Part shown: positions 2,628-45,600 of the stretch, piece after piece | Numbering within the stretch: position 1 is the stretch's first letter | Layout of the letters: each line of letters opens with the position of its first letter | Assembly (NCBI GenBank): GCA_047967505.1 | Contig: CM106538.1 | From: Dipteris shenzhenensis | Lineage: Eukaryota | Length of the DNA stretch: 64,000 nt | Direction: 5' to 3' (one strand) | Notes under the pieces: generated by a model | What the model was told of the DNA's origin: nothing | Databases searched by the model: none | The model's input: the letters and a program-made list of their open reading frames with translations, nothing else | Program-made: the position numbers and the translations under genes

Positions 2628-2655
2628 TGTGTATGTATGTATGTATGTATGTATG

Positions 2656-2724
<69 letters not shown>

Positions 2725-3378: not shown

Positions 3379-3415
<37 letters not shown>

Positions 3416-4022: not shown

Positions 4023-4088
<66 letters not shown>

Positions 4089-4738: not shown

Positions 4739-4774
<36 letters not shown>

Positions 4775-8372: not shown

Positions 8373-10956
8373 TTATTTGGGGCTGCTCGCTTTTCTCCAC
8401 TCACTTTTTGGTAATCCTCCATCAAACCCATCATGTGAGCTGACAAATGACAAAAAACAGAAGGTCTCAGACAAACCCTTTTGTGCACTATCCGATTCAT
8501 GGATAACACCCACAAACCTTCTATGCCAAAATTGAGCCTCTATCATTGCTTCCTTGAGATTTACCATCTCTATCATTGTCATAAATGATAGCAATACATA
8601 CTGTGACGGAGTGGCAATGGTCTCCATCAAGCCACAGAGCAACTTCTTGAAGGCATCCTTATCCCAACACATGGCTTTGGCAGATCCCTCTGAGGTGTCA
8701 AGCACACACAAGCTGATTAGAAGTTGTTCCTTGGAGTGACGTGTTAGAAAGCTCTCCCCCTCCATCTCCATGTTCACTTGAATAATTGTCCAAGGAAAAC
8801 AAGACTGCGATGTAGACTTGTTACCCTCTATTGAACTAATCACCCAATCAACATAGATTGACGCGGCTTCTGGGAAATCAGGTGTGGACTTGCCAACTTG
8901 CAACTTCTCTTTGACCCATGACTCACATGAACCCTTGAAGCTCTGATAAACAATTGAATCAATTTTGAAGTAATTTGCAAGGGTATCCCATGTTTGATGT
9001 TGGGGCAAAAGGTGACGTGAGTTGAACTCCTTAATGAGCACTTCTTTCAAGGCTCTATCATGCTTAATCTCCATTGCCCGTTGAGACATTTCAATGGAGT
9101 CCTTGTCTTTTCTTGACTTGACCAAGACTATTTCTTTAGACTCAATCTCTGCTTGAAGTGCACGTACATCTTCGTCTTCCAATCCTAGCAGACACCTCAT
9201 ATATGTTATTGTAGGATTTCGACCCTCAATATCACCCTGCTTCACCAATGTCAAAATCCTAATCCATTGTTCATAGATGTCATCATCGTATGTGACCATG
9301 TGCGTGTCCTTGGTAGCAAAGTTTGGGCCCATCGATACGCTTGCAACTCCTACAAAATTCTATATAAAAAAATCAAAATCATCTTAGACATTCTTCTAAT
9401 CCAAATCATGTAATAGAGATAATAATGACACTAGTGCGATTCTCCCATTACCATGTCAAAAGCATGACTTGGTAACTAGAAGAATGGCACTAGTGCCATT
9501 CTCACATCAGGGAATTGACACTACTATCATTTCTTTTACAAAGCCATAAACATTCTTGAAATAAAAAATGCATACAAAACAAAGTTTATTACTCACATCC
9601 CAACTTTGTCGATCTTTATGCCCTTTGACAAGGCCTTGGGCTGGTTTCTTTGGTTGTCCGAATGCAATCCACTGCGCCCTTAGTGTTGTAAGATATCGAT
9701 ATATGGTTGATTTTTCAAAACGGTATGTGCCTCCATGTTGGCCATTGATGATATCTTACAACTTGCTTCAACTGGTGCATTGACAACAATTCTTGCCTTC
9801 CTCCATGTATAGAAACCTTTTTGTTGATTGAAGGCTTCTCCACGTGCTTTAGTTATAAACATCCTTGTAGCATAAATCGAATGGTGCCTTGCGAGAATCC
9901 AATAATTATACTCCTTTAACTTTTCCACCTTTATCTCTTCCTTGCACATCGGAGTATTTGTGCCTGTGTGGTAAGGCATAAGATATGCACATGTTGTAGG
10001 AGGTCGTGCATTCATTGCAAAACTCTTGACCAAGTCACTGACATAGCTGAGGGTCAATGTCCTGTACACATATTGGCTTGGTGCTCTAAAGCAATTCATC
10101 ATTGGGATCAACACCTCAAACTCCAAACCAAATGGGAAGTACTCTACGTACTCCATCAAGCCTGTCATACTTGTGTCCTTCCTTTCCAATTTCTTTTGTA
10201 GTGACTTAAAGTCAACATCTGGCTAGATTTTCTTATACAGGATGATAGTTGCTTCAGATGATTTCTCACCTTGTCTTGTTATATGTGTCTCACCACTCCC
10301 CATTGCATCACCTTCACTTCCAGCTCCATCAGTGACTATTCCCGTACCTCCTTGTTTTCCTCCTAAAGTTGTCTTTTTGTCTTTAGCCTCCAGTTTATCC
10401 CCAATGCTTGTTTTTCCATCTGACCTTATTTCCTTCTCACCTATTGTTTCCTCCTCATCGGTCTCTCTAGCCTTCTCTTTCAATGTGTTCTGAGACACTT
10501 GAGAGCTTGATCCCTCAACATCACTTTTCTTGGTTCTTTTCGAAACTTTTCTACTCTTTTTTATATCTTGCTTTATCCCTTTTGTTACCAAATCAAAGCT
10601 CTCTAATATCTGTTGGTTGGTATAATTTTTTGGCTCATTAATCCAACCCCTAGATATCATCGTGTCCTCCCCAGTAGCATTCATCCTCGCATGATCAAGA
10701 CAAGTAGGATCCAATTGATACACATTGCCTCCTAATGTATGAATTTTGAGACAAGGAACGTTGTCTTTCTCGGTATCCTCCATCTCTTTAACTTGTCCAA
10801 CATCTTCAAAAGTTGTTCCTTGGATGTTCACAAAACAATGCACTTTATGGAGTTCTTGGAGTTCGTTATTGTATATATCCAAAAACCATCCTCTTCCAGA
10901 ACTAACTCCATCATAAACTGACACCTCTCGAACTTTCTCTTTCCCTTGCTAGCCAT
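8373..10956 (-). pseudogene. Disrupted two-exon gene (~780 codons restored); putative ParB/Srx-like domain plus possible degenerate N4/N6 DNA methyltransferase-like C-terminal region
   Basis: Three track ORFs (10924-10223, 10189-9680, 9332-8373) join into one reading. ATG at 10956 gives MASKGKEKV if 1 nt is restored. The TAG at 10225-10223 is in frame with the next ORF. A 1-nt frameshift at ~9682 restores LQHLRAQWIAFGQPKKP...SWD. A phase-0 intron 9596-9360 then joins to NFVGVASVSMGPNF. ParB-like: YRTLTLSYVSDLVKSF...YWILARHHSIYA. MTase-like: LLISLCVLDTSEG...WDKDAFKKLL...YVLLSF...SETFCFLSF. Gene structure is well supported; domain identity is by eye only. Confidence 0.7.
9360..9596 (-). other. 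Predicted GT-AG intron (237 bp) of the disrupted gene
   Basis: Donor GAT|GTGAGT at 9596 and T-rich acceptor TTTTTTTATATAG| ending at 9360; splicing keeps the frame; AT-rich. Confidence 0.75.
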
Positions 10957-11162
10957 TCTTGCAATGTTCTGTTAACAAAAGAACCAAGGACACAATGAAA
11001 TGTATAATATAAAATCATAACTGTAGTAGGAAATATTACAACCACAATGCAACTTCTATTAACAAACTAACCAAGGCGAAGCAACTTATATATGCATTAT
11101 GAAAAACTACACCAACACAGTAAGCAAATATACACAATATCAAAGTTAAGATGGTTATAATA

Positions 11163-11392
11163 AAGAATGGTATTCGTGCCATTCTCCAACATAATATGAT
11201 GTTAGAAGAGTGTCACAAATGCCATTGAACACATGGATTGTGGGTTTGTTCAAAACGGCACAAGTGCCATCCTCCGTGAGAGTTTGAGGATAATGCCACT
11301 GGTGCCATCCTCCATGATGTTAAGGAGAATGGTAGAAGTTCAATTCATCACATGGATTGCAGAGAATCAGAGAATGGCACCAGTGCCATTCT
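11163..11392. repeat. Degenerate ~40-bp-spaced copies of the GAATGGCAC-NN-GTGCCATTC palindrome (proto-satellite)
   Basis: Motif copies near 11163, 11208, 11253, 11288, 11326 and a perfect-armed AGAATGGCAC-CA-GTGCCATTCT at 11371-11392. Confidence 0.7.
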
Positions 11393-11459
11393 ACTTATGT
11401 GAAGGTTATCACATGAGAGTTTTCTCACCTGACCTTCTAGAGAAGGGCACTGATGCTAA

Positions 11460-14400
11460 TAAGAATGCACATGTGATTTTAGGCTTCTCAATGCCATTTT
11501 CTAGGGCCTAATAAGAGACTAGCACCATTGCCATTCTCCACTTGTACAAATGTCTACCCTACTATTCTAGGAGGGGTACTCTAGGAGAGTGATGTCCAAT
11601 TCCAATCCACATGTGAGTTTTATGATCTCAGTGTGATTATGTAGGTTTCAGCATGAGATTGGCATCACTCCCATTCTCCACGAGTGGTAGTCTAGACATT
11701 CCACTAATTATATTGGCTACAGTAGGATAATGGCAAAAGTGCCAATGCACATGTGAGTTTGGAATTCCTTGTGCATGTTTTCAAGTCATGGTATGAGATT
11801 GGCACCATTGCCATTCTCCACAGAGATTGACACAAATCCATATGATCTCTACACAGCAGAGATAGTGATCACTACATAAAAGAATGCACATGTGAGTTTA
11901 GGCTTCTCAATGCCATTTTGATGGGCCTAATAAGAGATTGCCACCACTGCCATTCTCCACTTGTACAAATGTTTACCCTACTATTGTAGGAGGGGTATTC
12001 GAGTGATCATAGGAGAGTGGTGTCTGATTCCAATCCAAATGTGAGTTTGATGATCTTAATGTCATTATATAGTTGCCATCATGAGATTGGCATCACTGCC
12101 ATTCCCCACTAGTGATAGTCTAGACAAACTAAACCTATAGATTGACATTCCAGGGCCTAATAAGAGATTGACACAATTCCATATGATCTCTACACAGCGG
12201 AGACAGTGATCAATACATAGAAGAATGCACATGTGAGTTTAGGATTCTCAATGCCATTTCTTAGGGCCAGCATGAGTTTGGCATCACTGCCATTCTCCAC
12301 TAGTGGTAATCTAGACAAACTAAACCTATAGATTAACATTCCACTAATTTTATTGGCTGCAATAGGATAATGGCAAAAGTGCCAATGCACATGTGAGTTT
12401 AGGATTCCTTGTGCATGTTTTCAGGTCATGGTATGCGTTTGGCACCACTACCATTCTCCACTGGTGGCATTCTCCATAGAGATTGACACAAATCCATATG
12501 ATCTCTATACAGCGGAGACAGTGATCACTACATAGAAGAATGCACATGTGAGTTTAGGCTTCTCAATGCCATTTCTTAGGCCTAATAAGAGATTGGCACC
12601 ACTACCATTCTCCACCTGTACAAATGTTTACCCTATTATTCTAGGAGGGGTATTCCAGTGATCATAGGAGAGTGGTGTCCGATTCCATTCCACATGTGAG
12701 TTTGATGATCTCAGTGTCATTATGTAGTTGCCAGCATGAGATCGGCATCACTGCCATTCTCTGCTAGTGGTAATTTAGACAAACTAAACCTATAGATTCA
12801 CATTCCACTAATTTTATTGGCTGTAGTAGGATAATGGTCAAAGTTCAAATGCACATGTGGGTTTAGGATTCCTTGTGCATGTTTTCAGGTCATGGTATGA
12901 GATTAGCACCACTGCCATTCTCCACTGGTGGCATTCTTCACAGAGATTGACACAATTCCATATGATCTCTACACAGTGGAGACAGTGATCACTACATAGA
13001 AGAATGCACATTTGAGTTTAGGATTCCTTGTGCATGTTTTCAGGTCATGGTATGAGATTGGCACCACTGCCATTCTCCTCCATAGAGATTGACACAAATC
13101 CATATGATCTCTGCACATGTGCGTTTAGGCTTCTCAATGCCATTTCTTAGGGCCTGATGGCACCACTGCGATTCTCGACTTGTACAAATGTTTACGCTAC
13201 TATTCTAGGAGGGGTTCCAGTGATCATAGGAGAGTGGTGTCCTATGCCATTCCACATGTGAGTTTGATGATCTCAGAGATTGACACAATTCCATATGATC
13301 TCTACAGAGTGGAGACAGTGATCACTACATAGAAGAATGCACATGTGAGTTTAGGATTCTTTGTGCATGTTTTTAGGTCATGGTATGAGATTGGCACCAG
13401 TACCATTCTCCACTGGTGGCATTCTCCACAGAGATTGACATAATTCCATATGATCTCTACATAGTGGAGACAGTGATCACCACATAGAAGAATGCACATG
13501 TGAGTTTAGGATTGCTTGTGCATGTTTTCAGGTCATGGAATGAGATTGGCACCACTACCATTCTCCACTGGTGGCATTCTCCATAGAGATTGACACAATT
13601 CCATATGATCTCTACATAGCGGAGACAGTGATCACTACATAGAGGAATGCACATGTGAGTTTAGGATTCCTTGTGCATGTTTTCAGGTCATGGTATGAGA
13701 TTGGCACCACTGCCATTCTCAACTGGTGGTATTCTCCATAGAGATTGACACAAATCCATATGATCTCTGCACATGTGAGTTAGGCTTCTCAATGCCATTT
13801 CTTAGGGCCTAATAAGAGATTGGCACCACTGCCATTCTCCACTTGTACAAATGTTTACCCTACCATTCTAGGAGGGGTATTCTAGTGATCATAGAAGAGT
13901 GGCATCCTATTCCATTCCACATGTGAGTTTGATGATCTCAGTGTGATTATGTAGTTGCCAACATGAGATTGGCATCACTGCCATTCTCCGCTAGTGGTAA
14001 TGTAGACAAATTGCACCTATAGATTGACATTCCACTAATTTTATTGGCTACAAAAGGATAATGGCAAAAGTGAGTTTAGGATTCCTTGTGCATGTTTTCA
14101 AGTCATGGTATGAGATTGGCACCACCGCCATTCTCCACTGGTGGCATTCTCCCCAGAGATTGACACAATTCCATATGATCTCTACACAGTGGAGATAGTG
14201 ATCACTACATAGAAGAATGCACATGTGAGTTTTGGCTTCTCAATGCCATTTCTTAGGGCCTGATAAGAGATTGGCACCACTGCCATTCTCCACTTGTAGA
14301 AATGTTTACCCTACTATTCGAGGAGGGGTCTTCCAGTGATCATAGGAGAGTGGTGTCCGATTCCATTCCACACTAGTGGTAGTCTAGACAGCATGAGATT

Positions 14401-17400
14401 GGCATCACTGCCATTCTCCGCTAGTGGGAATCTAGACAAACTGAACCTATAGATTGACATTCCACTAATTTTATTGGCTGCAGTAGGATAATGGCAAAAG
14501 TGCCAATGCACATGTGAGCTTAGGATTCCTTGTGCATGTTTTCAGGTCATGTTATGAGATTGGCACCACTACCATTCTCCACTAGGTGCATTCTCCACAA
14601 AGATTGACACATTTCCATATGATCTCTACTCAGCGGAGACAGTGATCACTACATAGAAGAATGCACATGTGAGTTTAGGCTTCTCAATGCCATTTCTTAG
14701 GGCCTAATAAGAGATTGGCACCACTGCCATTCTCCACTTGTACAAATGTTTACCCTACTATTCTAGGAGGGGTATTCCAGTGATCATAGGAGAGTGGTGT
14801 CCGATCCCAGTCCAAACGTGAGTTTGATGATCACAATGTCATTATATAGCTGCCATCATGAGATTGGCATCACTGCCATCCCCCACTAGTGGTAGTCTAG
14901 ACAAAATAAACCTATAGATTGACATTCCAGGGCCTAATAAGAGATGGACACAATTCCATCTGATCTCTACATCACGGAGACAGTGATCACTACATAGATT
15001 AATGCACATGTGAGCTTAGGATTCTCAATGCCATTTCTTAGGGCAAGCATGAGATTGGCATCATTGCCATTCTTTGCTAGTGGTAATCTAGACAAACTGA
15101 ACCTATAGATTGACATTCCACTAATTTTATTAGCTGCAATAGGATAACGGCAAAAGTACCAATGCACATGTGAGTTTAGGATTCCTTGTGCATGTTTTCA
15201 GGTCATGGTATGAGATTGACAGCACTGCCATTCTCCAATTCTATAGATTGACATTCCAGGGCCTAATAAGAGATTGACACAATTGCATATGATCTCTACA
15301 CAGCGGAGACAGTGATCACTACATAGAAGAATGCACATGTGAGTTTAGGATTCTCAATGGCATTTCTTAGGGCAAGCATGAGATTGGCATCACTACCATT
15401 CTCCGCTAGTGGTAATCTAGAAAAACTAAACCTATAGATTGACATTCCACTAATTTTATTGGCTACAATAGGATAATGGCAAAAGTGCCAATGCACATGT
15501 GAGTTTAGGATTCCTGGTGCATGTTTTCAGGTCATGGTATGAGATTGGCACCACTGCCATTCTCCACTGGTGGGATTCTCCAGACAGATTGACACAATTC
15601 CATATGATCCCTACACATCGAAGACTGTGATCACTACATAGAAGAATGCACATCACCACTAGTGTAGAATGGCAGTAGGATAATGCCAAAAGTGCCAATG
15701 CATGTTTTCAGGTCATGGTATGAGATTGGCACCACTGCCATTCTCCATAGAGATTTGTATCAATCGTTGTGGAGAATCCATAGAAGAATGCACATGTCAG
15801 TTTACGCTTCTCAAGCCATTTCTTAGGGCCTAATAAGAGATTGGCACCACTGCCATTCTCCACTTGTACAAATGTTTACCCTACTATTCTAGGAGGGGTA
15901 TTCTAGTGATCATAGAAGAGTGGTGTCCGATTCCATTCCACATGTGAGTTTGATGATCTCAATGACATTATGTAGTTGCCAGCATGAGATCGGCATCACT
16001 GCCATTCTCCACTAGTGGTAATCTAGTCAAAATAAACTTATGAATTGACATTCCACTAATTTTATTGGCTGCAGTAGGATAATGGCAAAAGTACAAATGC
16101 ACATGTGAGTTTAGGATTCCTTGTGCATGTTTTCACGTCATGGTATGAGATTGGCACCACTGCCATTCTCCACTGGTGGCATTCTCCATAGAGATTGGCA
16201 CAAATCCATATGATCTCTACAAAGGGGAGACAATGATCACTACATAGAAGAATGCACATGTGAGTTTAGGCTTCTTAATGCCATTTATTAGGGCCTAATA
16301 AGAGATTGGCACCACTTCCATTCTCCACTTGTACAAATGTTTACCCTACTATTCTAGGAGGGGTATTCTAGTGATCATAGGAGAGTGGTGTCCGATTCCA
16401 ATCCAAATGTGAGTTTGATGATCTCAATGTCATTATATAGTTACCAGCATGAGATTGGCATCACTGCCATTCCCCGCTAGTGCTAGTCTAGACAAACTAA
16501 ACCTATAGATTGACATTCCAAGGCCTAATAAGAGATTGACACAATTGCATATGATCTCTACATAGCGGAGACAGTGATCACTACATAGAAGAATGCACAT
16601 GTGAGTTTAGGATTCTCAATGCCATTTCTTAGGGCAATGATTAGATTGGCATCACTGCCATTTTCCGCTAGTGGTTATCTAGACAAACTAAACCTATAGA
16701 TTGACATTCCACTAATTTTATTGGCTACAGTAGGATAATGGCAAAAGTGCCAATGCACATGTGAGTTTAGGATTCCTTGTGCATGTTTTCACGTCATGGT
16801 ATGAGATTGGCACCACTGCCATTCTCCACTGGTTGCATTCTCCAGAGAGATTGACACAAATCCATATGATCTCTACACATCGAAGACTCTGATCACTACA
16901 TAAAAGAATGCACATTACCACTAGCGGAGAATGGCAGTAGGATAATGGCAAAGGTGCCAATGCACATGTGAGTTTAGGATTCCTTGTGCATGTTTTTAGG
17001 TCATGGTATGACATTGGCATCACTGCCATTCTCCACTGGTGGCATTCTCCACAGAGATTTACACAAATCCATATGATCTCTACACAGTGGAGACAGTGAT
17101 CACTACATAGAAGAATGCACATGTGAGTTTGGGCTTCTCCATGCCATTTATTAGAGCCTAATAAGGAGATTGGCACCACTACCATTCTCCACTTGTAGAA
17201 ATGTTTACCCTACTATTCTAGGAGGGGTATTCCTATGCTAATCCAAATGTGAGTTTGATGATCTCAATGTCATTATGTAGTTGCCAGCATGAGATTGGCA
17301 TCACTGCCATTCCCCACTAGTGGTAGTCTAGACAAACTAAACCTATAGATTGACATTCCAGGGCCTAAAAGAGATTGACACAATTCCATATGATCTCTAC

Positions 17401-19589
17401 ACAGTGGAGACAGTGATCATTACATAGAAGAATGCACATGTGAGTTTAGGATTCTCAATGCCATTTCTTAGGGCAAGCGTGAGATTGGCATCACTACCAA
17501 TCTCCGCTAGTGGTAATCTATACAAACTAAACCTATAGATTGACATTCCACTAATTTTATTAGCTGCAGTAGGATAATGGCAAAAGTGCCAATGCACATG
17601 TGAGTTTAGGATTCCTTGTGCATGTTTTGAAGTCGTGGTATGAGATTGGCACCACTGTCATTCTCCACAGAGATTGACACAATTCCATATGATCTCTACA
17701 CAGCAGAGACAGTGTTCACTACATAGAAGAATGCACGTGTGAGTTTAGGCTTCTTAATGCCATTTTCTAGGGCCTAATAAGAGCTTGGCACCACTGCCAT
17801 TCTCCACTTGTACAAATGTTTACCCTACTATTCTAGGAGTGGTATTCCGGTGATCATAGGAGAGTGGTGTCCAATTCAAATCCAAATCTGAGTTTCATGA
17901 TCTCAATGTCATTATATAGTTGCGAGCATGAGATTGGCATCACTGCCATTCCCCACTAGTGGTAGTCTAGACAAACTCAACCTATAGATTGACATTCCAG
18001 GGCCTAAAATTTAGGATTCTCAATGCCATTTCTTAGGGCAAGCATGAGATTGGCATCACTGCCATTCTCTGCTAGTGGTAATCTAGACAAACTAGACCTA
18101 TAGATTGATGTTTACCCTACTATTCTAGAAGGGGTATTCCAGTGATCATAGGAGAGTGGTGTCCGATTCCAATCCAAATGTGAGTTTGATGATCTCAATC
18201 TCATTATATAGTTACCAACATGAGATTGGCATCACTACTATTCCCCACTAGTAGTCTAATTTTATTGGCATTCTCCACACAGATTGACACAATTCCATAT
18301 AATCTCTACACAGTGGAGATAGTGATCACTACATAGAAGAATGCACATGTGAGTTTAGGCTTCTCAATGCCATTTCTTAGGGCCTAATAAGAGATTGGTA
18401 CCACTACCATTCTCCACTTGTACAAATGTTTACCCTACTATTCTAGGAGGGGTATTCCAGTGATCATAGGAGAGTGGTGTCCGATTCCAATCCACATGTG
18501 AGTTTGATGATCTCAGAGATTGACACAATTCCATATGATCTCTACATAGCAGAGACAGTGATCACTACATAGAAGAATGCACATGTCAGTTTCAGATTCC
18601 TTGTGCATGTTTTCAGGTCATGGTATGAGATTGGTACCACTACCATTCTCCAGAGAGATTGACACAACTCCATATGATCTCTGCACAGCGGAGATAGTGA
18701 TCACTACATAGAAGAATGCACATGTGAGTTTAGGATTTCTTATGCATGTTTTCAGGTCATGATATGAGATTGGCACCACTACCATTCTCCACAGAGATTG
18801 ACACAATTCCATATGATCTCTACATAGCAGAGACAGTGATCACTACATAGAAGAATGCACATGTGAGTTTAGGATTCTCAATGGCATTTCTTAGGGCAAG
18901 CATGAGATTGGCATCACTCCCATTCTCCGCTAGTGGTAATCTAGACAAACTAAACCTATAGATTGACATTCCACTAATTTTATTGGCTGCAGTAGGATAA
19001 TGGCAAAAGTACCAATGCACATGTGAGTTTAGGATTCCTTGTGCATGTTTTCAGGTCATGGTATGAGATTGGCACCACTACCATTCTCCAGTGGTGGCAT
19101 TCTCCACAAAGATTGACACAATTCCATATGATCTCTACACATTGGAGACTGTGATCACTACATAGAAGAATGCACATTACCACTAGCGGAGAATGGCAGT
19201 AGGATAATGCCAAAAGTGCCAATGCATGTTTTCAGGTCATGGTATGAGATTGGCACCACTGCCATTCTCCACAGAGATTTGTGTCAATCTCTGTGGAGAA
19301 TACATAGAAGAATGCACATGTCAGTTTACGTTTCTCAATGCCATTTCTTAGGGCCTAATAAGAGATTGGCACCACTGACATTCTCCACTTGTACAAATGT
19401 TTACCCTACATGAGATTGGCATCACTGCCATTCCCCACTAGTGGTAGTCTAGACAAACTAAACCTATAGATTGACATTCCAGGGCCTAAAAGAGATTGAC
19501 ACAATTCCATATGATCTCTACACAGAGGAGACAGTGATCTTTACATAGAAGAATGCACATGTGAGTTTAGGATTCTCAATGCCATTTCT
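11460..19589 (+). repeat. Satellite array block 1 (155-bp period; + defined as GAGATTGGCACCACTGCCATTCTCC on the top strand)
   Basis: Three monomer types share two boxes, GAGATTGGCA(C/T)CACTGCCATTCTCC and CACATGTGAGTTT. 155-bp offset between 13302 and 13457; 465-bp trimer between 15864 and 16329. Confidence 0.95.
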
Positions 19590-20851
19590 GTGAACCATTC
19601 CTGATGATTTGTCATATGAGATGATGCACCGCTGTCGATGTACCAAGGATCCTGTTCCACTTGGTCGACTTGATAGCTAAAATCCTCTTTGGGATTGAAA
19701 TCAGTGTCTAGGTGCATTGTATCAGTCTGATGCAATTCTTCACTTGCAAGAAACATATTGCCATGTTCATTTGCAAAATGACTGTGACTAGAATGTCCAC
19801 CACGATGATTTCCTCTTCCTCGGGAATTCCCTCGATTACTGCTGGATTGATTGCCTTGATCATACTGCTTCTTGCGGCAATCTCTTTCATAGTGTCCAAA
19901 CTTGTGATAGTAGTTGCACTGGATGTTTGACACATTGGTGGATGCATTCCCTCGTCCTTGAAATCTTCCTCGGTTGGAATGATTTCCTCTTTGCTGATTC
20001 TGATGTTGCTGAGGATGATGCTGATGCTGATGTTGATTTTGACTTTGATTTTGTTGATGATAACCACTTTTCTGATATGATCTACCTCTGTTTCTACCTT
20101 TGCCTCTGCTTCTATCTGAAGCTGTGAATGCTTGATCATTAGAATGACCTTTACGTGCTTGAATGGCCTGAGTCCTAAGTTCTTCACCAAGTAGAACTGA
20201 CTGAAGTCCTTCTAGTGTTGGAATTTGCCGTTGGATGGCAATACTCTGGACTAGATTCTCATATCCTTTTCCTAGTCCATTCAGCATTACTTGAACCATT
20301 TCTGCGGGATTCATAGTCTCTCCTGCTGCTGCAAGTTGATTGTTGTAGTCTTTGATGCAGAGTACATAAGCATGACCGGTTTCACTGCTGTTGCGGAAAC
20401 TCTGGTTGATCTGGTTTCTCAGGGTGAGAATCCTGGACGTGTTCTTGGACTCATAGAGAGCTACGAACATATCCCATGCTTCTTTTGATGTCTTGACTGT
20501 GTTGAGCTGTTCTAGCATGACATCTTGCACATTCTGCTTGATCAGGTGATAGGCATACTTGTCTTTCTTATCCCATTCTACTTGAGCTCGGGCAATGGTA
20601 GGATCTGCTACTGGTGCGGAAACTGTTTGTGTAGATGTAGATCCCGATGTAGATCCCGTTGCTGGTGTTGTGACAACAGATGGAGTAGAGCTACTGGTGG
20701 CTGGATCGACCAATGGTCTAGGTATAGATCCATCGACATACTCCCATTTGTCCTGAAGCACAAGAATGGTCTCCATTCGATATTTCCATGTACCATAATT
20801 GGAGTTGTCTAACTTAGCAGATGCCTCTAGATTGAGGTTGCTAGTCGACAT
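19590..20851 (-). pseudogene. gag: Copia Gag plus N-terminus of aspartic protease (truncated)
   Basis: MSTSNLNLEASAKLDNSNYGTWKYRME; UBN2-type Gag; degenerate knuckle CNYYHKFGHYERDC; WYIDSGASSHMT; the frame runs out into satellite (stop at 19541). Confidence 0.9.
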
Positions 20852-21634
20852 GGTGCAAACAATGTACTCAAAAAGTGTCCTAGAAAACTCTGTATGAATC
20901 AACTGCAAATACACTGAAGATGCCAAGTGAAATCTCTGTACCGTCGGTGAAGATAGAACTGCAGTAAATAAGATCTGACCTGTGTTACAAGGCTTGTGGC
21001 AATGATGCCGGGAATAGCCAAGAGGCTTTACAAGGCTAAAAAATGATGTGCACGATGCCGTGAGATAGCCAAATAGGCTTTACAATGGTGGCATGTGTGT
21101 GTGAAATCAAATGATATCTGCCCACTAAATCAATCTGCAATGCCTCTGAACTCTGAAGTCTGCTCACTGAACTGATGAACGTAAGGTTTCAGGTAATGTA
21201 ATGATGTGAAATCGGATGTGAGCGTATGGACTGACTCCGAGTAGGTACTAGTTGGGAATTTCGGGCATGGCTTAGATTGGCAACTTGGGGAAATTCAAAG
21301 CGTCCCCTCTATGGCGATCTAGTCTACTCTGATCTAGATCTAAACCAACTGTCGATCGATGAAAGAACAGCAAATAATTCCTTTTCTTTTGTTCTTTTTA
21401 AGTGCTGGGTCAGATGCATCGATGTAGAGGCAAATGTGCGTGAAGGAAGTGGTTTTGTCGGCGAGGCACAAATGTGAGTGTAACTTGCGCCGAAATGTGT
21501 GTGTGATGTAACGAGCACGTAGAGCACAAAAAAACGAGCGACTTTTCTTTTTGGAGCACCCTCAAATTCTTCCTGAATCAAGAGATATGACTTGATCTAG
21601 GTGGAGGGGCAAAAGGAGTGCAAATGGTGCTCAA

Positions 21635-22125
21635 TGATGATGTGTCACTGTGAGTCACATGCAGTGATGATGTGGCATTGTGCTTAGCAAGAGGTGTGCC
21701 AGTGAAGCTCTGTGCTGAGGTGGTAGGAGTGTGCACATGCAGTGTGTGCACAGTGTGCTTGGCAAGGGACTGTGCCTACAGAGGGTCAGTGCTGACTGGA
21801 CTCTGCTGAGGTGGCACTGCTGAGTTGGCACAGATGATGTCAATAGGGTGACGGGGCAATGCTGACATGGGATTGATGACATGTCCCTGATGATGTGGTA
21901 GGTGACGTGGCAGTCGGTGATGATGTGGCAGTCGATGATGATGTGGCCTGATGACATGGATTGTTGACGTGTCAATGCTGATGTGGTAGTGTGGATAGGG
22001 TGATGACATGGCAATGATGATGTGGCAGAGGATAAGACAGCTACACGTGGCACATCCGAGTGCCTGATGATGTGGCAATTGGAGATAAGGTTGCCACGTG
22101 GCAAAACTCTATCTGCCACATGTCG
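21635..22125. repeat. Dispersed GATGATGTGGCA / ACGTGGC motif cluster in the leader of element 1
   Basis: About ten GATGATGTGG-like copies (e.g. 21666, 21889, 21919, 22016, 22066) and GCCACGTGGC at 22093-22102. Confidence 0.7.
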
Positions 22126-23359
22126 AAATGCGAGGCACCAGAATCTATCCAAGATTCTGATGGAATCTTGGAGATTTCGTCGTCTTCTCCGTTGATGGAG
22201 GCAGCCGGGCACTGGCCGTCGAGGTGCCTTCGGAGGTGGTTGTGAAGCCGTCAGGCTTGTGGCTATGCAGTCCCGTTTGGAGAGGCTGTCGATCGGAGAT
22301 GAAGAAGGTGCTAGGCGCTGGTCCGTCGTGATCGTTGATGGGATGAGGCATTGGCGACGCTATGGAAGCCCGTTGGTGGAGTTGCTGGTGCTGTGGGGAG
22401 CCACTTTGTGAAGCGGGTTGGAGAGCTCTCAGACAGCATTGCTAGAGCCTGTAGAGCCCGTGGAAGAGGAGGCTGGGCCAGAGCGTTGCTCTTTGGTTTG
22501 GGAGTCGAAGGTTCGCTATGGAGCAGCCCGATTGTTCGAAGGTCGTTGGTGTTGTTGATGCATTTAGCACCTCTCCAGATGCTCTTTGTTGCATAGATGG
22601 CTCGTTGTTAGGAGCAGTCGCCTTGCTTGTCGTAGAAGACAAGCAAGTCTTGGGTTTGTTAAAGGAGACCTTCGGGTTGACATGACTTTAGTAGCCAGAC
22701 TTGCTGCGCTCTATCTTGCTCTTCGCCATGAGGGGCTCCTCCAAAGTCATGGTAGGAAGGAGGATTCACAGTGGGCGTCGATGGCAGTGGAGGTCACCTT
22801 ACTACATGAGTGCTATGCATGAGCTTTGCACTGGTCCGCCTTCGCTCATGAGCTCATGCTGCAGTCCGTTGAAGAGCGTTCGTTTGGAGCCTTGGAGCTG
22901 TTTGTTGAAGGCTCTGGCGGATGAAGCTGTGTGGACTTGGAGGAGTCGAAGCAATTGGAGCTCTCCAGTTACATGAGAGACTTGGAGTCTCACAGGACTT
23001 GAGCTCCAAACATAACTCTTTCTCTTCTCTCTTCGAAGAGAGATCTTACTAAAGCTTTACTTGTTCTTTGCAGAGATAAGACTCCCTATCTTTCCTTTCT
23101 TACTCCAAGTACAAAGGAAGCAGAACACTCTCTCTCACCGTAGATCTCTCAATCTTTCAAGAATAGAATTCTCTCGCAGAAGAACGAAAATCTTTCACAA
23201 ACTCTTGAAGGAGATGAACAGAAATATCTCACCAAATGGACGGAATTTTCTCTCAACGGAAGTGAAGGGAAGGATCTCACAATCACTCAAGAGAACTCTC
23301 AATCTCACAATCTCTCTCACACTCTCAAGAATCTCAATGTCTCAGCGGAAGACAAGGAA

Positions 23360-23371
23360 GCTCTGATACCA
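23360..23371 (-). other. Primer-binding site (tRNA-iMet) of element 1
   Basis: TGGTATCAGAGC on the minus strand directly after the LTR end. Confidence 0.95.
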
Positions 23372-23628
23372 TGACAAAATATGAAGAGGGGAGAGGAGAA
23401 GAGTGGAGATGAGGAGAGAGGGCACAGCTAGAGAGCACACCACAAATGACTAACTGTACACTAGAATTAGTTGAAAAAATAGAATATATACAAACCCTTT
23501 TAGGGTTAGGGTTAGGGAATCTAACCCTTTCCTTTATAGCACTCTATAAGGTTAGTGCTATGCACATATGATCACGTGATGGTGCTATGCACACATGATC
23601 ACATGATGTTGAGCGTGAACTCTCAACA
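23372..23628 (-). repeat. 5' LTR of element 1 (257 bp)
   Basis: Minus strand starts TGTTGAGA and ends TTTGTCA; bounded by satellite and PBS; contains (TTAGGG)3 at 23500-23517 and a 27-bp tandem pair at 23555-23608. Confidence 0.85.
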
Positions 23629-24756
23629 AGTGTTGCCAATCTCATACCATGACCTGAAAACATGCACAAGGAATCCTAAACTCACATGTGCATTGGCACT
23701 TTTTCCATTATCCTATTGCAGCCAATAAAATTAGTGGAATGTCAATCTATAGGTTCAGTTTGTCTAGATTACCACTAGCAGAGAATGGTAGTGGTGCCAA
23801 TCTCTTATTAGGCCCTAAGAAATGGCATTGAGAAGCCTAAAGTCACATGTGTAGAGATCATACGGATTTGTGTCAATCTCTATGGAGAATGCGACCAGTG
23901 GAGAATGGCAGTGGTGCCAATCTCATACCATGACCTGAAAACATACACAAGGAATCCTAAACTCACATGTGCATTCTTCTATGCAGTGATCACTGTCTCC
24001 GCTGTGTAGAGATCATATGGAATTGTGTCAATCTCTATGGAGAATGCACCAGTAGAGAATGGCAGTGGTGCCAATCTCATACCATGACCTAAAAACATGC
24101 ATAAGGAATCCTAAACTCACATGTGCATTTGCACTTTTGCTATTATCCTACTGCAGCCAATAAAATTAGTGGAATGTCAATCTATAGGTTTAGTTTGTCT
24201 AGATTACCACTAGCAGAGAATGGCAGTGATGCCAATCTCATGCTGGCAACTACATAATGACACTGAGATCATCAAACTCACATGTGGAATAGAATCGAAC
24301 ACCACTCACATGTGCCAATCTCATGCCTCCTAGAATAATAGGGTAAACATTTGTACAAGTTGAGAATGGCAGTGGTGCCAATAGGCCTAAGAAATGGCAT
24401 TGAGAAGCCTAAACTCACATCTGCATTCTTCTATGTAGTGATCACTATCTCCGCTATGTAGGGATCATATGGATTTGTGTCAATCTCTGTGGAGAATGCC
24501 ACCAGTGGAGAATGGCAGTGGTGCCAATCTCATACCATGACCTGAAAACATGCACAAGGAATCCTAAACTCACATGTGCATTGGCACTTTTGCCATTATC
24601 CTACTGCCATTCTCCGCTAGTGGTAATATGCATTCTCCTATGTAGTGATCATTGTCTCCGCTGTGTAGAGATCATATGGATTTGTGTCAATCTCTATGGA
24701 GAGTGCCACCAGTGGAGAATGGCAGTGGTGCCAATCTCATACCATGACCTGAAAAC
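23629..24756 (-). repeat. Satellite block 2 (inverted)
   Basis: GGAGAATGGCAGTGGTGCCAATCTC on the top strand. Confidence 0.95.
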
Positions 24757-27700
24757 TGTGGGGGTTAAAGGTCACTGTGCCTTTACCCCGGTTATGTACA
24801 ATACTCAAACACATATATAAATGAATGAAAAAGAAGATTAGGGTGGTTCTGCACCCACCAAACTTGTCTGGCTCTGTGTCTCTCTCTCCTTCTTCCATCC
24901 TTGCTTCCGTTGAGAGCTCTCTCAACTGTTTTCAAAGAAAAAGTCGTTTTTTGAGCTTTTCCATGTTCCGTTCGATGACAGAGACTCCATATTGACTTGT
25001 AGAGGCAACTATTGCTTACTTTTGGTGTCCACATTACTTCAGGAGCTTGGAAACACCTTCATTCTTGAATCTGAGATCATTTCAGTGGATTTCTGACTCA
25101 CTGTGTCAGTTCCTACGTTTTTTGCCCGGGTGTTGGAACTCAAGTTTGGAGCAACCATTTGCAGATCTGTCAGTTCTGGTGGACTCAAGAGGTCCTAAAA
25201 CTTCTATGTTGCTCATCATTCGCACTCTGGTGGAGTTTACAAACAGCTCTGTTTCAAAAAACGTTTTTCAGCCCGTGTGTTGGACCCAGTGATTGAGACC
25301 ACGGTTTCCAAAACCGTCTGTCCCATTATTGCGTTCCGGACGCCCAAAAACCCCTACCTGTCAGTTCTTGCGCAATTCGGTGGAGGATTTTCAGAGTTAT
25401 AGATCTCTATGTATTCGATTTCGTCTCTCTGTTATGCATTTTTCATTCTAAGGTTTTGAAACCTTAGATTTATGCCACATGGCAGTGGATAAGTGTTGAC
25501 TCCCATTTCTCACTCATCGGCGGTTGGGATTTTGGAGTTCTGGCAGAAGAGAGATATTTGCAGATTTTCTTGCTCATTCCGATTATGCAATGGCGCCCAT
25601 GTTTTGAGGCATCTCAGGTTCTATTTTCAGTAGCGCTCATTACCGTGGGACTATGATTTCTTGAGCATACCTTATGCAGATCACTCTGGTTGCAGTTTGA
25701 GCAGTGTGCGCTCATTCGTGGTGTGCATTGGGTTGCAGTGGATGATTTATAGGCCATTTGGATGCATTGCGGTCCTTATTGGATGCGCTGATAGGCCCAA
25801 ATTGCCTTGTGGGATGCTATTTTTATGGACGCTTTGCACATGGATGCTATTTTAAGCTGAGGGACAGCTTTGACACATTGCAGGTGATGCACTGATAGTG
25901 CTATGCTCTCTTGGATGAGATATTATTGATGCATGCGCCAGTGGACGGTGTTTATGCTTGAGTCATTTGGCACTTATTGGCATTTTCGTTTGGGCCAGAT
26001 TTGCTCATATGGATGCATAGTATATGCACATGAGTCAGATGCATCTTTTGATGCTTTGAGCTTTGAATTTTGGTGATATTTCACTCTATTGTGGCATACA
26101 CATTTGGGTGCACCTAGTATTTGGTGTGATTCTCTCTTGAGGCACTAGCATTTGGGATTTTGCTTTATTTGCATCATGGCATCCTCTTCCACGTCTGAAA
26201 AGGAGTTTTTCAGCATTAAAAAGTTTGATGGGACAAACTTTTCTTTGTGGAAAGAACAAATAAGGAATGTGCTTATTCAAAAGAAGCAGATTAAACCCTT
26301 GGCAGTGATTGAAGCTAAGCTTGGAAATATGTCTGAGGATGATTGGAATGAGTTGGATGCATTAGCAAAGTCTACTATTAGACTTCATCTTGTAGAGTCT
26401 GTTTATTTCACAGTAGTAAATGAGCAGACTACGGAAGATTTGTGGAAGAAACTGTGTGCCACTTATGAGAAGGAAACCGCCTCTAATAAAGTTTACCTCA
26501 TGAAGAGGTTGTTTGAGCTGCAGATGAAGGAAGGGGTCTCCATTGCTTCTCACTTGAATGAATTCAATATTATTTTCAGCCAGCTTCAGGCTCAGAAAAT
26601 GAATTTTGATGCGGAGACTAAGGCAATATTTCTCTTATGTTCATTGCCATCCTCATGGGATACCTTCCGTACAGCTGTCAGTAACTCTGCACCTGGTGGA
26701 GTACTGAAATTTGATGATGTTGTGGGTAGCTTGTTGGCCGAGGAGATTAGACGGAAGTCTATGGATGGCAACAAGCAAGATGCAGCCTTAAATGTGCAAA
26801 GGGGTAGATCACAGTTCAGGGGGAAGTCCCAAGAAAGAGGGAAGTCTCGTAGCAAAATCCAGGGCACGGAACATTGAGTGTTACCATTGTGGCAAGAAGG
26901 GCCATATGAAAAAGGATTGCTACAAGCTGAAAAGAGAGCAAAAGGATAAGAAAAAGAATGCAAATTGGGGTGCAAATAAAAAGGAAGAGAGTCCAAGGGA
27001 CGACAAAGGAAAAGTGAAGATCGAGGAGATCAATGCAGTCACACATGATAGTGACAATGATGTTCTCTTCATGTCTACTTTATCTGCAGAGTTGCTTACC
27101 ACTTCAGATGATGCATATTCCCAGGATTGGATTTTGGATTCTGGTGCTTCATTCCATGTTACTCCCCATAGGGAATGGTTCTCCACTTATGACAGTGGAA
27201 AGACAGGTTGTGTGCATCTTGGAAATGACTATGCATGTGACATAGTGGGAGCAGGTGACATAAAGTTTTTTTTTGCAAATGGGTCTGCATTTGTTTTGAA
27301 ACATGTGAGACATGTGCCTAAGCTGACCAAGAGTCTTATTTCAGTGGGTCAACTAGATGATGCTGGTTTTCACACCACTTTTGGCTTTTAGAGTTGGAAA
27401 ATTAAGAAGGGCTCTATGCTTTTGGCCAGGGGTGCCAAGTGTGGGACTTTGTATCCCTTATATGTATCAGGGGTATTTGATCATGTTGTTGCAATAATCG
27501 AGCAGCCAAGCACTTCTTTGTGGCATTGCAGGTTGGGGCACATGAGCCAGAATGGAATGAAACTCTTATGCCGTTTGGGTTATGTACCACATTTGAGTTT
27601 CTCTGATTTTGAATTTTGTGAGCATTGTCTCTATGGGAAGCAGACTAAATCAGCCCATAAAAGAAGGGGAAAGAAAGAGTTTGAAAAGCTTGACTTGGTG

Positions 27701-29446
27701 CATTCAGATGTATGTGGTCCCATGCCTACATGGTCATTAGGCGGGGCTGAATACTATGTGACATTCATTGATGATGCAACTAGGAAAATGTGGGCTTATG
27801 CTATAGCTCGGAAGAGTGATGTGTTCCAGGTATTTCAGAAATGGCTGGCCTTGGTTGAGAATCAGTCAGGTAGAATGCTTAAATGCCTACGGACTGACAA
27901 TGGTGGAGAGTATCTCTCTCATGACTTTCAGCATTTCTGTGATACACGTGGGATTAAGAGGGAGCTCACATCCCCTCGTACTCTAGAGCAAAATCCAGTT
28001 GCAGAAAAGATGAACCGTACCATTCAAGAAAGGTTGCAACGCATGCTTTCCAATGCAAGTCTTTGGGCTGAGGCAATGAAAACTGCAGTGCATGTGATCA
28101 ATAGATCACCTAGTAAGAGTTTGGATGGTGGTATTCCTGAAGAGGCATGGAGTGGCAAGAAGCCCTCTTACTCTGATTTGCGTATATTTGGGTGTGAGGC
28201 ATATGCACATGTGCCAAAAGAGCTTCGAAAGAAGCTAGATCCTAAGTCTAGGAAATGCATCTTTCTGGGTTATGGTGAAAGTGGAGAGATGGGCTATCGT
28301 CTCTGGGATCCAAAAGCAAAGAAGATCATACGTAGCCATGATGTGGTCTTCAATGAGAAGAAGATGCATAAGGCACCCATGAGGGATGTGGAAATGAGGA
28401 GAACCACTTTCCAGGATGTGAATCCACCTGCATATGTTGATAGACAGCAAGCTATCCATGCACCAAATGTGCAAGAAATGGTACAACCAAGTACTCCCAT
28501 AGGTATACAATCAAGGGTAGATGATGGATCATCTATTGGTGGAAATGATGAGCCAAATGTGGCTGATATGCAAGTGGGACAGCAAGCTGAAATGCCCTTG
28601 AGAAGATCATCTAGAGTGTCTAGACCGCCTGATAGGTTTGTTCCAGGGGTAGACTATGTGATGCTTACTGATTGCGGGGAGCCTTCTTGCTACAAAGAGG
28701 CTATGATGCGTGAGGATCAATGCAAGTGGGAGTATGCTATGCAATCAGAGATGAGTTCACTTATGAAGAATAAGACTTGGGACTTGGTTTCTTTGCCACA
28801 TGGAAAGAAAGCATTGCCATGTAAATGGGTCTACAAAATGAAGGTCACAAGTGATGATGTGCCTAGGTACAAGGCCCGTTTGGTTGCTAAAGGGTTCAAG
28901 CAAGAGAAGGGTGTGGACTTTGATGAGATATTCTCTCCAGTTGTGAAGATGACCACACTTAGATGCATGCTTGGACTAGTGGCAGTAGAGGATATGGAGC
29001 TTATGCAAATGGATGTCAAGACAACTTTCTTGCATGGGGATTTGCATGAGGAAATTTACATGGTGCAGCCGGAAGGCTTTGAAGAAAAGGGCAAAGAGCA
29101 TTTAGTTTGCAAGCTGAAGAAGAGTCTCTATGGTCTTAAGCAAGCACCTAGAGAATGGTATCAGAAGTTTGATGCTTTCATTCAGTCCCAGGGTTTTAGA
29201 AGGAGTGAAATTGATCACTGCCTCTACACTAAAAGGGCTAAGGATAATAGCCTGATAATCTTGGCACTATATGTGGATGATATGCTATTGGCTAGCAAGA
29301 ATACTTATGAGCTAGATGCATTAAAGGCCAAGTTGCATGAGGCCTTTGATATGAAGGATTTGGGACTTGCAGGTCATATTCTTGGTATGTGCATCACGCG
29401 TGATCAGAGTAGGAAACTCCTTTGGCTTTCACAAAAAGAGTATGTT
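24757..29446 (+). mobile_element. Ty1/Copia element 2 (Tnt1/Tork-like motifs), PBS deleted, 3'-truncated within RT
   Basis: Short LTR 24757-24924 (TGTGG...CTCA) homologous to 43578-43748; gag-PR-INT-RT order; ends at LSQKEYV and joins satellite. Confidence 0.92.
26176..29446 (+). pseudogene. gag-pol: Copia Gag-Pol polyprotein, disrupted and truncated
   Basis: KFDGTNFSLWK; CYHCGKKGHMKKDC; WILDSGASFH; WHCRLGH..CEHC; VHSDVCGP; RTDNGGEY; YKARLVAKGF; LYVDD. Frameshift at ~26854-26857, stop at 27389-27391, no RNase H. Confidence 0.93.
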
Positions 29447-30268
29447 ACCACTAGTGGGGAATGGTAGTGATGCCAATCTCATGCTGGCAACTATATAATG
29501 ACATTGAGATCATCAAACTCACATTTGCATTGGAATCGGACACCACTCTCCTATGATCACTAGAATACCCCTCCTAGAATAGTAGGCTAAACATTTGTAC
29601 AAGTGGAGAATGGCAGTGGTGCCAATCTCTTATTAGGCCCTAATAAATGGCATTGAGAAGCCTAAACTCACATGTGCATTCTTCTATGTAGTGATGACTG
29701 TCTCCACTTTGTAGAGATCATATGGATTTGTGTCAATCTGTGTGGAGAATGCCAGTAGTGGAGAATGGCAGTGGTGCCAATCTCATACCATGATGTGAAA
29801 ACATGCACAAGCAATCCTAAACTCACATGTGCATTTGTACTTTTGCCATTATCCTACTGCAGCGAATAAAATTAGTGGAATGTCAATCTATAGGTTTAGT
29901 TTGTCTAGATTACCACTAGTGGAGAATGGCAGTGATGCCAATCTCATGCTGGCAACTACATAATTTCATTGAGATCATCAAACTGACATGTGGAATGGAA
30001 TCGGACACCACTCTTCTATGATCACTAGAATACCCCTCCTAGAATAGTAGGGTAAACATTTGTACAATTGGAGAATGGCATGTGGTGCCAATCTCTTATT
30101 AGGCACTAAGAGATGGCATTGAGAAGCATAAACTGACATGTGCATTCTTCTATGTATTCTCCATAGAGATTGACACAAATCTCTATGGAGAATGGCAGTG
30201 GTGCCAATCTCATACCATGACCTGAAAACATGCGTTGGCACTTTTGCCATTATCCTACTACCATTCTC
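29447..30268 (-). repeat. Satellite block 3 (inverted)
   Basis: Reverse-complement monomers. Confidence 0.95.
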
Positions 30269-30938
30269 ACAAGGACATTAAAATATTGGCTCATTATGAG
30301 AAACCTCATCATGGCCATATAGAAATATATAGAGGAGTGTAGAATTTGCAAATAGGAGAGCAAGCATCTTGAGCCACTATCAATATTGTCACATCCAAAT
30401 GAAAAAAATCATTCTTTTAATAAAAAGTGGTCATATCCCCCAGGCACTTGCTATGGTTTGTTACATCCATATGTATAAGAGTGTTCTATTCAAAAGCAGC
30501 CATAATTTTTTGTATATCAATCCAATTTTCTTCTCCATCGTCAATAAAATGTACTACGAACTTTCCGATATACGGACGTAGTAAATCGTTCATAAGCATG
30601 ACGAAGGTCGCTGGAGCATTGGTAAGTCCGAAGGGCATTACCAAAAACTCATAATGACCAGTGTAGAGAGGTGAACCTTTTAGATGCAAACTTGTCCATT
30701 TTCCTTCATTTGTATCCAAAGTAATTACAAATTTATGACCCCCTTAACTTGTGATTGATTGTTGAAGGTCTTCTACATTGAATTTGAACATTTGGAGTTA
30801 TAGCGCAAAAGTTATAGCTATTTTACTATTCTCTTAATATTCCATGCAATTAAGTTCTATTACTTGTATATATGTTTTTGTAAAATTAATTTAGGAAAAT
30901 ATAATGAATATTTCAATGTGACAATTTAGGCCATTCAG
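30269..30938. other. Non-satellite patchwork island at an orientation switch
   Basis: 670 bp unrelated to the satellite; flanks are in opposite orientation; no LTR, TIR or TSD seen. Confidence 0.8.
30537..30662 (-). pseudogene. Ty3/Gypsy-type reverse transcriptase fragment (42 codons)
   Basis: [42 protein letters not shown] is the canonical Gypsy RT segment; similarity stops abruptly on both sides. Confidence 0.88.
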
Positions 30939-31277
30939 TACATAGAAGAATGCACATGTGAGTTTAGGATTCTCAATGCCATTTCTTAGGGCAAGCATGA
31001 GATTGGCATCACTGCCATTCTCCGCTAGTGGTAATCTAGACAAACTAAACCTATAGATTGACATTCCACTAATTTTATTGGCTCCAGTAGCATAATGGCA
31101 AAAGTACCAATGCACATGTGAGTTTAGGATTCCTTGTGCATGTTTTCAGGTCATGGTATGAGATTGGCACCACTGCCATTCTCGACTGGTGGCATTCTCC
31201 AGAGAGATTGACACAATTCCATATGATCTCTACACATCGAAGACTGTGATCACTACATAAAAGAATGCACATTACCA
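30939..31277 (+). repeat. Satellite block 4 (short, forward)
   Basis: About two forward monomers between two filler islands. Confidence 0.9.
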
Positions 31278-31356
31278 AACCTCATCCCAGACCCTGTGAA
31301 GATAAGTAACCGTCTGGAAGATGGCATCAACCTGAAGTGGTGTCATGGCAACTTTG

Positions 31357-35580: not shown

Positions 35581-36491
35581 AGTAGTCTAGACAAACTAAA
35601 CCTCTAGATTGACATTCCAGGGCCTAATAAGAGATTGACACAATTGCATATGATCTCTACACAGGGGAGACAGTGATCACTACATAGAAGAATGCACATG
35701 TGAGTTTAGGATTCTCAATGCCATTCTCCCCTAGTGGTAATCTTAGGGCAAGCATGAGATTGGCATCACTACCATTCTCCGCTAGTGGTAATCTAGACAA
35801 ACTAAACCTATAGATTGACATTCCACTAATTTTATTGGCTGCAGTAGGATAATGGCAAAAGTGCCAATGCACATGTGAGTTTAGGATTCCTTGTGCATGT
35901 TTTCAGGTCATGGTATGAGATTGGCACCACTGCCATTCTCCACTGGTGGCATTCTCCATAGAGATTGACACAATTCCATATGATCTCTACATAGAGGAGA
36001 TAGTGATCACTACATAGAAGAATGCACATGTGAGTTTAGGCTTCTCAATGCTATTTTCTAGGGCCTAATAAGAGATTGGCACCACTGCCATTCTCCACTT
36101 GTACAAATGTTTACCCTACTGTTCTAGGAGTGGTATTCCAGTGATCATAGGAGAGTGGTGGCCGATTCAAATCCAAATGTGAGTTTGATGATCTCAATGT
36201 CATTATATAGTTGCGAGCATGAGATTGGCATCACTGCCATTCCCCACTAGTGGTAGTCTAGACAAACTAAACCTATAGATTGACATTCCAGGGCCTAATA
36301 AGAGATTGACACAATTCCATGTGATCTCTACACACTGGAGACAGTGATCACTACATAGAAGAATGCACATGTGAGTTTAGGATTCTCAATGCCATTTCTT
36401 AGGGCCTAATAAGAGATTGGCACCACTGCCATTCTTTGTTAGTGGTAATCTAGATAAACTAAACCTATAGATTGATGTTTACGCTACTATT
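35581..36491 (+). repeat. Satellite block 6 (forward)
   Basis: Begins at a foldback junction with block 5. Confidence 0.93.
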
Positions 36492-45566: not shown

Positions 45567-45600
45567 TTACGAGCAAAAACCTATGAGCAGGTTTATCCAA

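Follow-up and report, generated by a model that had tools for sequence, protein, structure and literature searches.

Two features lie side by side in the window analysed here, a 64,000-nucleotide (nt) stretch of contig CM106538.1 from Dipteris shenzhenensis (assembly GCA_047967505.1): a gene copy and a large satellite, both of which carry short palindromic sequences that we call boxes. Judging from sequence comparisons, we regard it on balance as probable that the gene copy is a decayed member of a family in which the encoded protein and its cognate boxes diverge together, and that an array of such boxes 5' of the gene was amplified into the satellite. The evidence comes from the likeness between the boxes of gene and satellite, and from relatives of the gene, whose loci hold box arrays of their own.

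The initial annotation had linked the boxes beside the gene to the box in the satellite, and our comparisons support a relation of the two beyond chance. In the intron of the gene, a perfect palindrome of 22 base pairs (bp), AGAATGGCAC-TA-GTGCCATTCT, lies at 9481-9502 and a second box, with 4 mismatches to this 22-mer, at 9422-9443. Both had been noted before; a third copy, placed near 9512-9535, is weak, being missed at our search threshold of at most 4 mismatches and visible only within an nhmmer envelope. The description of about six upstream copies some 40 bp apart held well: boxes lie at 11164-11185, 11206-11229, 11252-11273, 11290-11311, 11326-11349 and 11371-11392, with a spacing of 36-46 bp. 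Four of them (11164, 11252, 11290, 11371) were found at the same threshold, and the remaining two (11206-11229, 11326-11349) were detected only as weaker repeats. CACATG(G/A)GA motifs are interspersed in this proximal array with a period of about 119 bp. A chance origin of the boxes was rejected: the 4461-nt gene segment was shuffled 200 times and no box ever appeared. Two of 24 positions distinguish the satellite core from the box at 11370-11393. When a profile built from 108 satellite monomers was searched against the window with nhmmer, it matched the flank at 11366-11454 (E 1.4e-5) and the intron at 9512-9429 (E 2.4e-5), with nothing significant in 1-9400 (best E 0.087) and no boxes 3' of the gene. 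The core that they have in common, A[AT]TGGCA-N4-TGCCA[AT]T, is present 139 times in the window and not once in 1-8000.

Relatives of the gene and their own arrays

A scan of metagenome contigs gave eight loci (L001-L008) encoding relatives at 28-43% identity. The initial annotation had named a lack of palindromes in paralogous genes as a refutation; tested on these loci, the link between box and gene was not refuted. Seven of them have their own repeated boxes, which belong to three further sequence types and stand at the same positions; the eighth (L004) has only 96 nt of 5' sequence. The relatives together hold 40 boxes (4 in L001, 5 in L002, 13 in L003, 2 in L005, 6 in L006, 6 in L007 and 4 in L008), and 200 shuffles gave a mean of at most 0.01 boxes. 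L001 and L002, at 42-43% the closest box-bearing relatives of the window copy, have a CCCTATGGCC-N4-6-GCCATAGGG-like palindrome and share with the window the core ATGGC-N6-GCCAT. The box of L003 is a direct motif, TTGGACAAGTGGTGGACCTTG, found four times upstream and nine times after the stop codon, and L005-L008 carry GCTCAAACTTAAGTTTGAGC. All these boxes are 20-24 bp long, and they are palindromic in three of the four subfamilies. Each of the four types is confined to the loci of its own subfamily, and box types follow protein clades in a tree that is descriptive only, since kin share labels and L004 is labelled by kinship.

The position of the boxes is equally regular. All 46, the six of the window included, are non-coding: they precede the ATG, fall within the conserved intron or follow the stop codon. 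In the relatives, as in the window, the array ends about 50-250 bp before the ATG, and a pyrimidine tract with AG stands 2-21 nt before the ATG in all seven loci that hold this region. All eight sequences that include the junction (window and L001-L007) have the intron after exon 1 at one conserved position, W(D/K)|GT; boxes are found in it in the window and in L005 and L007. The relatives' arrays form tandem units of 55-131 bp. They amount to about nine 100-bp units running off the contig in L006 (1-900); the contigs of L001, L003 and L008 start within their arrays, and the array of L007 is bounded at 355-721 (about 370 bp). In L005-L008, paralogues with only 72-80% identity in coding DNA, the non-coding DNA cannot be aligned and the same palindrome is kept, often perfectly, which points to selection on the box. 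The initial annotation had suggested that the satellite was born from a palindrome in the gene's own non-coding DNA. A birth from a chance palindrome in the intron is not supported, given that the tandem 5' array of boxes is old and family-wide.

Some loci show further features. In L006, a second short array with two boxes (4593-4847) lies ahead of a NIF (CTD-phosphatase-like) gene at 4992-7108 (Pfam E 2e-16), and in a gene model from Adiantum a NIF domain is joined to the ParB-like family; both genes might belong together as a conserved pair that shares these boxes. In L003, arrays of its direct box stand at either side of the gene (2-500 and 3382-4262), with 107-nt units that are 95% identical about 3.7 kb apart, so that either the gene lies inside its array or units of gene plus array are tandemly repeated. 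L002 also looks decayed, with a stop after 12 codons from the ATG (607-645) and a frameshift at about 1830-1880, near the end of exon 1, and it still has five upstream boxes. A ParA-type partner was not seen in these loci, on contigs of 1.2-7.5 kb.

The gene copy and the satellite in the window

The gene lies on the minus strand, with its ATG at 10956-10954 and with exon 1 ending at 9597, where a GTGAGT donor follows (Table 1). Comparison with contigs from public runs that are about 97% alike reveals three lesions. Two are 1-bp gaps, at 10932 and 9682, where these contigs have an extra base, and the third is an in-frame TAG at 10225-10223, where they read CAG. By these two frameshifts and one stop the window copy is a pseudogene, so that a relic of the element that seeded the satellite, one of the two roles offered by the initial annotation, fits it better than a birthplace. 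The family motif YWI(I/L)(S/D)GQHS reads YWILARHHS in this copy (about 9863-9904). Of the 470 residues of L003, only 2-269 are matched by exon 2 (tblastn, alignment A3), contigs of runs X1 and X3 part from the window at 8418, and the 3' end of the gene is probably truncated near there. Within the window the gene occurs once only, and a NIF phosphatase gene is absent.

Table 1. Coordinates of the gene copy, its boxes and the satellite in the 64,000-nt window
Feature	Position	Strand	Basis or content
Exon 2: helical region and first part of a beta-class methyltransferase-like domain (predicted)	8376..9359	-	tblastn, alignment A3, predicted fold of a relative
Intron, 237 nt, GTGAGT...AG, at the family-conserved position	9360..9596	-	Boxes 9422-9443 and 9481-9502, weak box near 9512-9535
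Exon 1: PH-like N-domain, K-rich linker, ParB/Srx-fold domain (predicted)	9597..10956	-	Lesion comparison, predicted folds
Spacer between array and ATG, probable end of a 5' untranslated region (UTR) intron	10957..11162	-	Acceptor-like motif, layout of 7/7 loci
Decayed proximal array, six palindromic boxes	11163..11460		Repeat finding, mismatch search, nhmmer E 1.4e-5 to 0.065
First three satellite monomers, diverged	11461..11880	+	Best match to another copy
Satellite, monomers of about 139-161 bp in higher-order units	11461..64000		Tandem Repeats Finder (TRF), anchor spacing, nhmmer
Satellite blocks	11464-19590, 35577-36477, 39202-43577, 45589-55932, 61394-64000	+	Merged nhmmer matches
Satellite blocks, mostly minus	23629-24758, 29438-30238, 31367-35305	-	Merged nhmmer matches

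The splice-acceptor-like sequence pointed out by the initial annotation, TTTTGTTAACAG, is present at 10980-10969, 12 nt ahead of the ATG, and in view of the tract and AG at this place in the relatives the flank is probably a 5' intron, as had been suggested. The context of the start codon, AGAATGGC (10950-10959), equals the first 8 bases of the half-site AGAATGGCAC, possibly by coincidence. In the public runs, a related X1 contig stays alike up to 11134 and an X2 contig, with 8 differing letters, reaches across the box region of the intron as far as 9489; the X1 contigs end at 11134 and at 9248/9539. Among runs X1-X4, no contig bridges the intron as a spliced form and none runs from the gene into the satellite. 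One X3 contig joins two boxes of the gene type (as at 9480-9502 and 11369-11393) only 3 nt apart. The word depth of the two-box X3 contigs is 87-116 as against 3-5 for gene contigs, a measure that cannot rank copy number, and hints at a box-rich high-copy repeat in the related organism.

The window is plant-like DNA with a guanine-cytosine content of about 0.37-0.47 and with Ty1/copia open reading frames (ORFs). The satellite begins at 11461/11464, while the segment 7000-11460 is unique in the window, and it spreads over at least 52 kb. Its monomers are mostly 139-161 bp long by anchor spacing and are joined into higher-order units of about 285-460 bp (TRF and spacing); on the plus strand, GAGATTGGCA occurs 132 times and TGCCATTCTC 96 times. 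The monomer profile gave 223 nhmmer matches, merged into blocks of both orientations. Each monomer has the core box GAGATTGGCAC-CA-CTGCCATTCTC. Among 108 monomers, consensus positions 50-78 are mostly conserved at 0.9 or above, compared with a mean of 0.73, and the core box is the best-conserved block among those not serving as anchors, across monomer types. The box thus exceeds the remainder of the monomer in conservation, as in satellites of the CENP-B-box type. At the gene-side edge, the first three monomers match their best other copy at 0.79-0.94 of 140 nt, compared with about 0.93-1.00 deeper inside, and upstream of 11461 there are box-sized matches only. Of the gradual passage from flank into array that had been described, the diverged first monomers are real.

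Insertions of Ty1/copia and other elements break up the satellite. ORFs of Ty1/copia type lie inside it at 19541-21079 (minus strand) and 26149-29467 (plus strand), encoding gag with a zinc knuckle and gag-integrase-reverse transcriptase, and other non-satellite islands are 36478-39201, 43578-45588 and 55933-61393. Between 23629 and 35511 the monomers run mostly opposite to the flanking blocks, reflecting a large inversion or an assembly from inverted segments. Elsewhere in the window, 2062-2258 and 2866-3065 are two copies of a unit of about 100 nt, each a long hairpin-like inverted repeat resembling a miniature inverted-repeat transposable element (MITE), among (TGTA)n and (TATG)n microsatellites (1146-4838).

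The protein family and its predicted folds

An exhaustive HMMER search of 1.84 billion representatives returned 50 relatives at E<=0.001, for which the only named sources are the fern Adiantum nelumboides (hypothetical proteins) and the liverwort Calypogeia fissa (an unnamed product). A word-based protein search with exon 2 gave no match, nor did alignment A2 among longer proteins in the range of 1314-3750 amino acids. AlphaFold models on the family alignments contain a PH-like part, a part with the alpha/beta fold of ParB/Srx and a part resembling beta-class DNA methyltransferases, which in an intact relative has the predicted circularly permuted fold of that class. The ParB sequence profiles (PF02195, NCBIfam) did not match window ORFs or relatives, and Pfam gave no match to PF01555. 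The initial annotation had called the protein ParB-like; with a fold match and no match to a sequence family, this label holds for the predicted fold and not for the sequence family.

Fusions of ParB and methyltransferase domains are common in bacteria and phages, and a prokaryotic origin of the fusion is what we infer here; the methyltransferase-like domain is probably prokaryote-derived and catalytically altered. The catalytic motif IV of beta-class methyltransferases is (D/N/S)PP(Y/F/W), and the nucleotide-binding motif of ParB enzymes that hydrolyse cytidine triphosphate (CTP) is GxxRxxA. An active methyltransferase aimed at the boxes was rejected as a candidate because the DPPY motif is absent. 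Conserved (L/V)(V/I)DxF(G/S)DG and ...CLVE sequences show partial likeness to motif I for binding of S-adenosylmethionine (SAM), FxGxG, and to the acidic residue that follows strand 2; the window copy is without this part. Iyer et al. (2016; PMC4738411) describe phage loci with methyltransferases linked to ParB as well as fusions of ParB with helix-turn-helix domains in some algae and chytrids, and a 2025 survey of the ParB fold names sulfiredoxin as the main eukaryotic member (PMC12704722). The protein Atlas points to likeness with fungal DUF3723 (scores 0.88-0.92), which is a lead only; DUF3723 is described as an accessory gene of Starships (PMC9156397).

Competing explanations and comparison with known systems

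In the explanation that we favour, the region would represent a decayed gene, present as its 5' half, from a land-plant family that has no name. Since arrays that are family-wide and clade-specific stand at a fixed position, the array appears to be an ancestral part of the gene family that varies together with it, and the boxes are most likely, on the strength of these sequence patterns, binding sites of the encoded protein. Their palindromic form suggests binding as a dimer. They might serve autoregulation, or seed a protein-DNA complex, or do both, much as in KorB/OB or ParB/parS, and protein and box would co-diverge. The satellite shares the box and sits where the 5' array of the family sits, and is therefore most simply understood as that array, amplified in the lineage of the window. 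The box would have been kept as the most conserved block, and the gene copy at the edge would have decayed later.

Several observations weigh against this explanation. The direction from array to satellite is read from phylogenetic breadth and was not observed, and the change from flank to satellite is a step at 11461 plus a decayed fringe, with no smooth gradient. A dead gene copy cannot act on the array now, and no RNA run was among the public runs that hold the gene sequence. Seven of the eight loci come from one metagenome assembly, on short contigs (1.2-7.5 kb). The box of L003 is non-palindromic, and the intron is free of boxes in L001-L004 and L006. On the protein side, window ORFs and relatives belong to no family in Pfam, NCBIfam or PADLOC and have no sequence match in PDB, with single proteins or profiles, and PHROGs gave only a faint match (phrog_1033, 'ParB-like partition protein', E 0.072). 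The structural scores for the predicted ParB/Srx fold are moderate. The arginine-rich GxxRxxA motif is absent, with YWI(I/L)(S/D)GQHS(I)xAAK in most of the 29 rows of A2, and in place of motif IV the 16 rows of A4, out of 17, that reach the site have (I/L)GLCVLDxT(K/E), with no PP(Y/F). Given the absence of both motifs, neither classic activity can be assumed.

Gene and arrays could also together form a DNA transposon or other mobile element, with the boxes as subterminal repeats bound by an element protein and the satellite derived from the transposon. Tandem amplification of this kind is known for CACTA, hAT and MITE families. The family is multi-copy with decayed members (the window copy and the frameshifted L002), boxes specific to a subfamily are a usual trait of transposons and their ends, and the near-identical 107-nt units on both sides of the L003 gene would fit as well, as would the tie to a cargo-like NIF phosphatase gene in L006 and Adiantum. 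A weak hAT dimerisation match in P0032 (E 3e-4, below the cut-off) and the Starship lead point the same way. However, Pfam and fold comparison revealed no transposase, recombinase or nuclease domain, and neither terminal inverted repeats nor target duplications turned up, on short contigs that defined no ends. The two L003 arrays run in the same direction, boxes are missing 3' of the gene in the window, and the paralogues are old (71-80% DNA identity). Moreover, two intron positions and the layout of acceptor and ATG are kept across deep divergence, as in a resident gene. A mobile element thus seems rather unlikely to us.

An alternative that starts from the satellite would make it unrelated to the gene, with the upstream boxes as a fringe of the array, the intron boxes as a stray fragment and the motifs spreading into the gene. 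The edges of arrays normally carry older, diverged monomers, the flank has the periodicity of about 119 bp with CACATG motifs as in the monomers, and the satellite starts sharply at 11461. Yet distant relatives have different boxes at the same two places, 5' of acceptor and ATG and in the same intron, and box types never cross subfamilies; the X2 contig, too, covers the intron box region. The relatives' sequences have weakened this reading, which we consider improbable. Still lower stands a role of the boxes as RNA, as intronic hairpins feeding small-RNA production or splicing control without binding of the encoded protein. The boxes are indeed intronic, both in the intron that follows exon 1 and in the probable 5'-UTR intron, and their single strands fold well (z-scores -3.9 to -6.5), but stems of 9-13 bp with very short loops make poor precursors and the L003 box is no palindrome. 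Arrays also occur past the stop codon (L003) and between genes (L006), 7000-14000 has no match in Rfam, and co-variation with the protein clade would not be expected, making such a role very improbable.

It has long been asked how satellites originate and what makes some of them retain a conserved box for a binding protein, and the decayed gene and its amplified array, if we read them correctly, offer a concrete and testable pair: one unnamed gene family and a defined box of 20-24 bp per subfamily. The arrays come in graded states, from the bounded 370 bp of L007 over kilobase arrays that run off their contigs to the satellite of at least 52 kb in the window. The satellite and box strings were found in no paper, and the literature searched gave neither a eukaryotic ParB-like protein with palindromic sites nor a satellite grown from a gene's own cis-element array. 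If the protein binds the box, the searches made would give no earlier eukaryotic case of a ParB-fold protein that has cognate DNA sites, and the locus would also be a case of such a satellite. Plant genomes also gain, through this family, a DNA-methyltransferase-like domain that is probably derived from prokaryotes and catalytically altered.

ParB/parS and KorB/OB of plasmid RK2 are pairs of bacterial ParB-family DNA binders and palindromic sites. In contrast to these, the gene described here is eukaryotic, nuclear and intron-bearing, its protein has no Pfam ParB match, has (D/S)GQHS in place of the CTP motif and carries additional PH-like and methyltransferase-like domains, no ParA partner was seen on the short contigs, and the candidate sites stand in tandem arrays, up to a satellite. 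Land plants such as ferns and liverworts may have a nuclear counterpart of ParB/parS or KorB/OB: an intron-bearing protein with ParB-fold and methyltransferase-like parts, of prokaryotic or phage ancestry, would recognise the palindromes of its subfamily at its own gene, and these arrays could run into satellites of the megabase class; such a satellite would come with its own encoded binder, able to nucleate chromatin or to silence or segregate the array. We put this forward tentatively, as a doubtful extension of the favoured explanation. Beta-class N6A/N4C methyltransferases include CcrM, M.RsrI and M.PvuII, and N4CMT of rotifers is a eukaryotic case acquired from bacteria. With the ParB-methyltransferase fusions of bacteria and phages the family shares the domain combination at the level of the predicted fold, whereas LCVLDxT replaces (D/N/S)PP(Y/F/W), a PF01555 match is lacking and the gene is an intron-bearing plant gene. 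Satellites are also known to derive from subterminal repeats of transposons, for example from the TnpA-binding motifs of En/Spm. Short repeated motifs near the 5' end and in the first intron, and their amplification into tandem arrays, are similar here, but there is no transposase, there are no terminal inverted repeats and the window has no motifs on the 3' side. Finally, CENP-B reads the CENP-B box in alpha satellite, and the monomers of the large satellite described here likewise contain a short conserved box, for which a dedicated, sequence-specific reader protein with a foreign or selfish origin is plausible. Unlike CENP-B, the candidate protein has another fold, and it is encoded at the margin of its own array, which belongs to the gene throughout the family.

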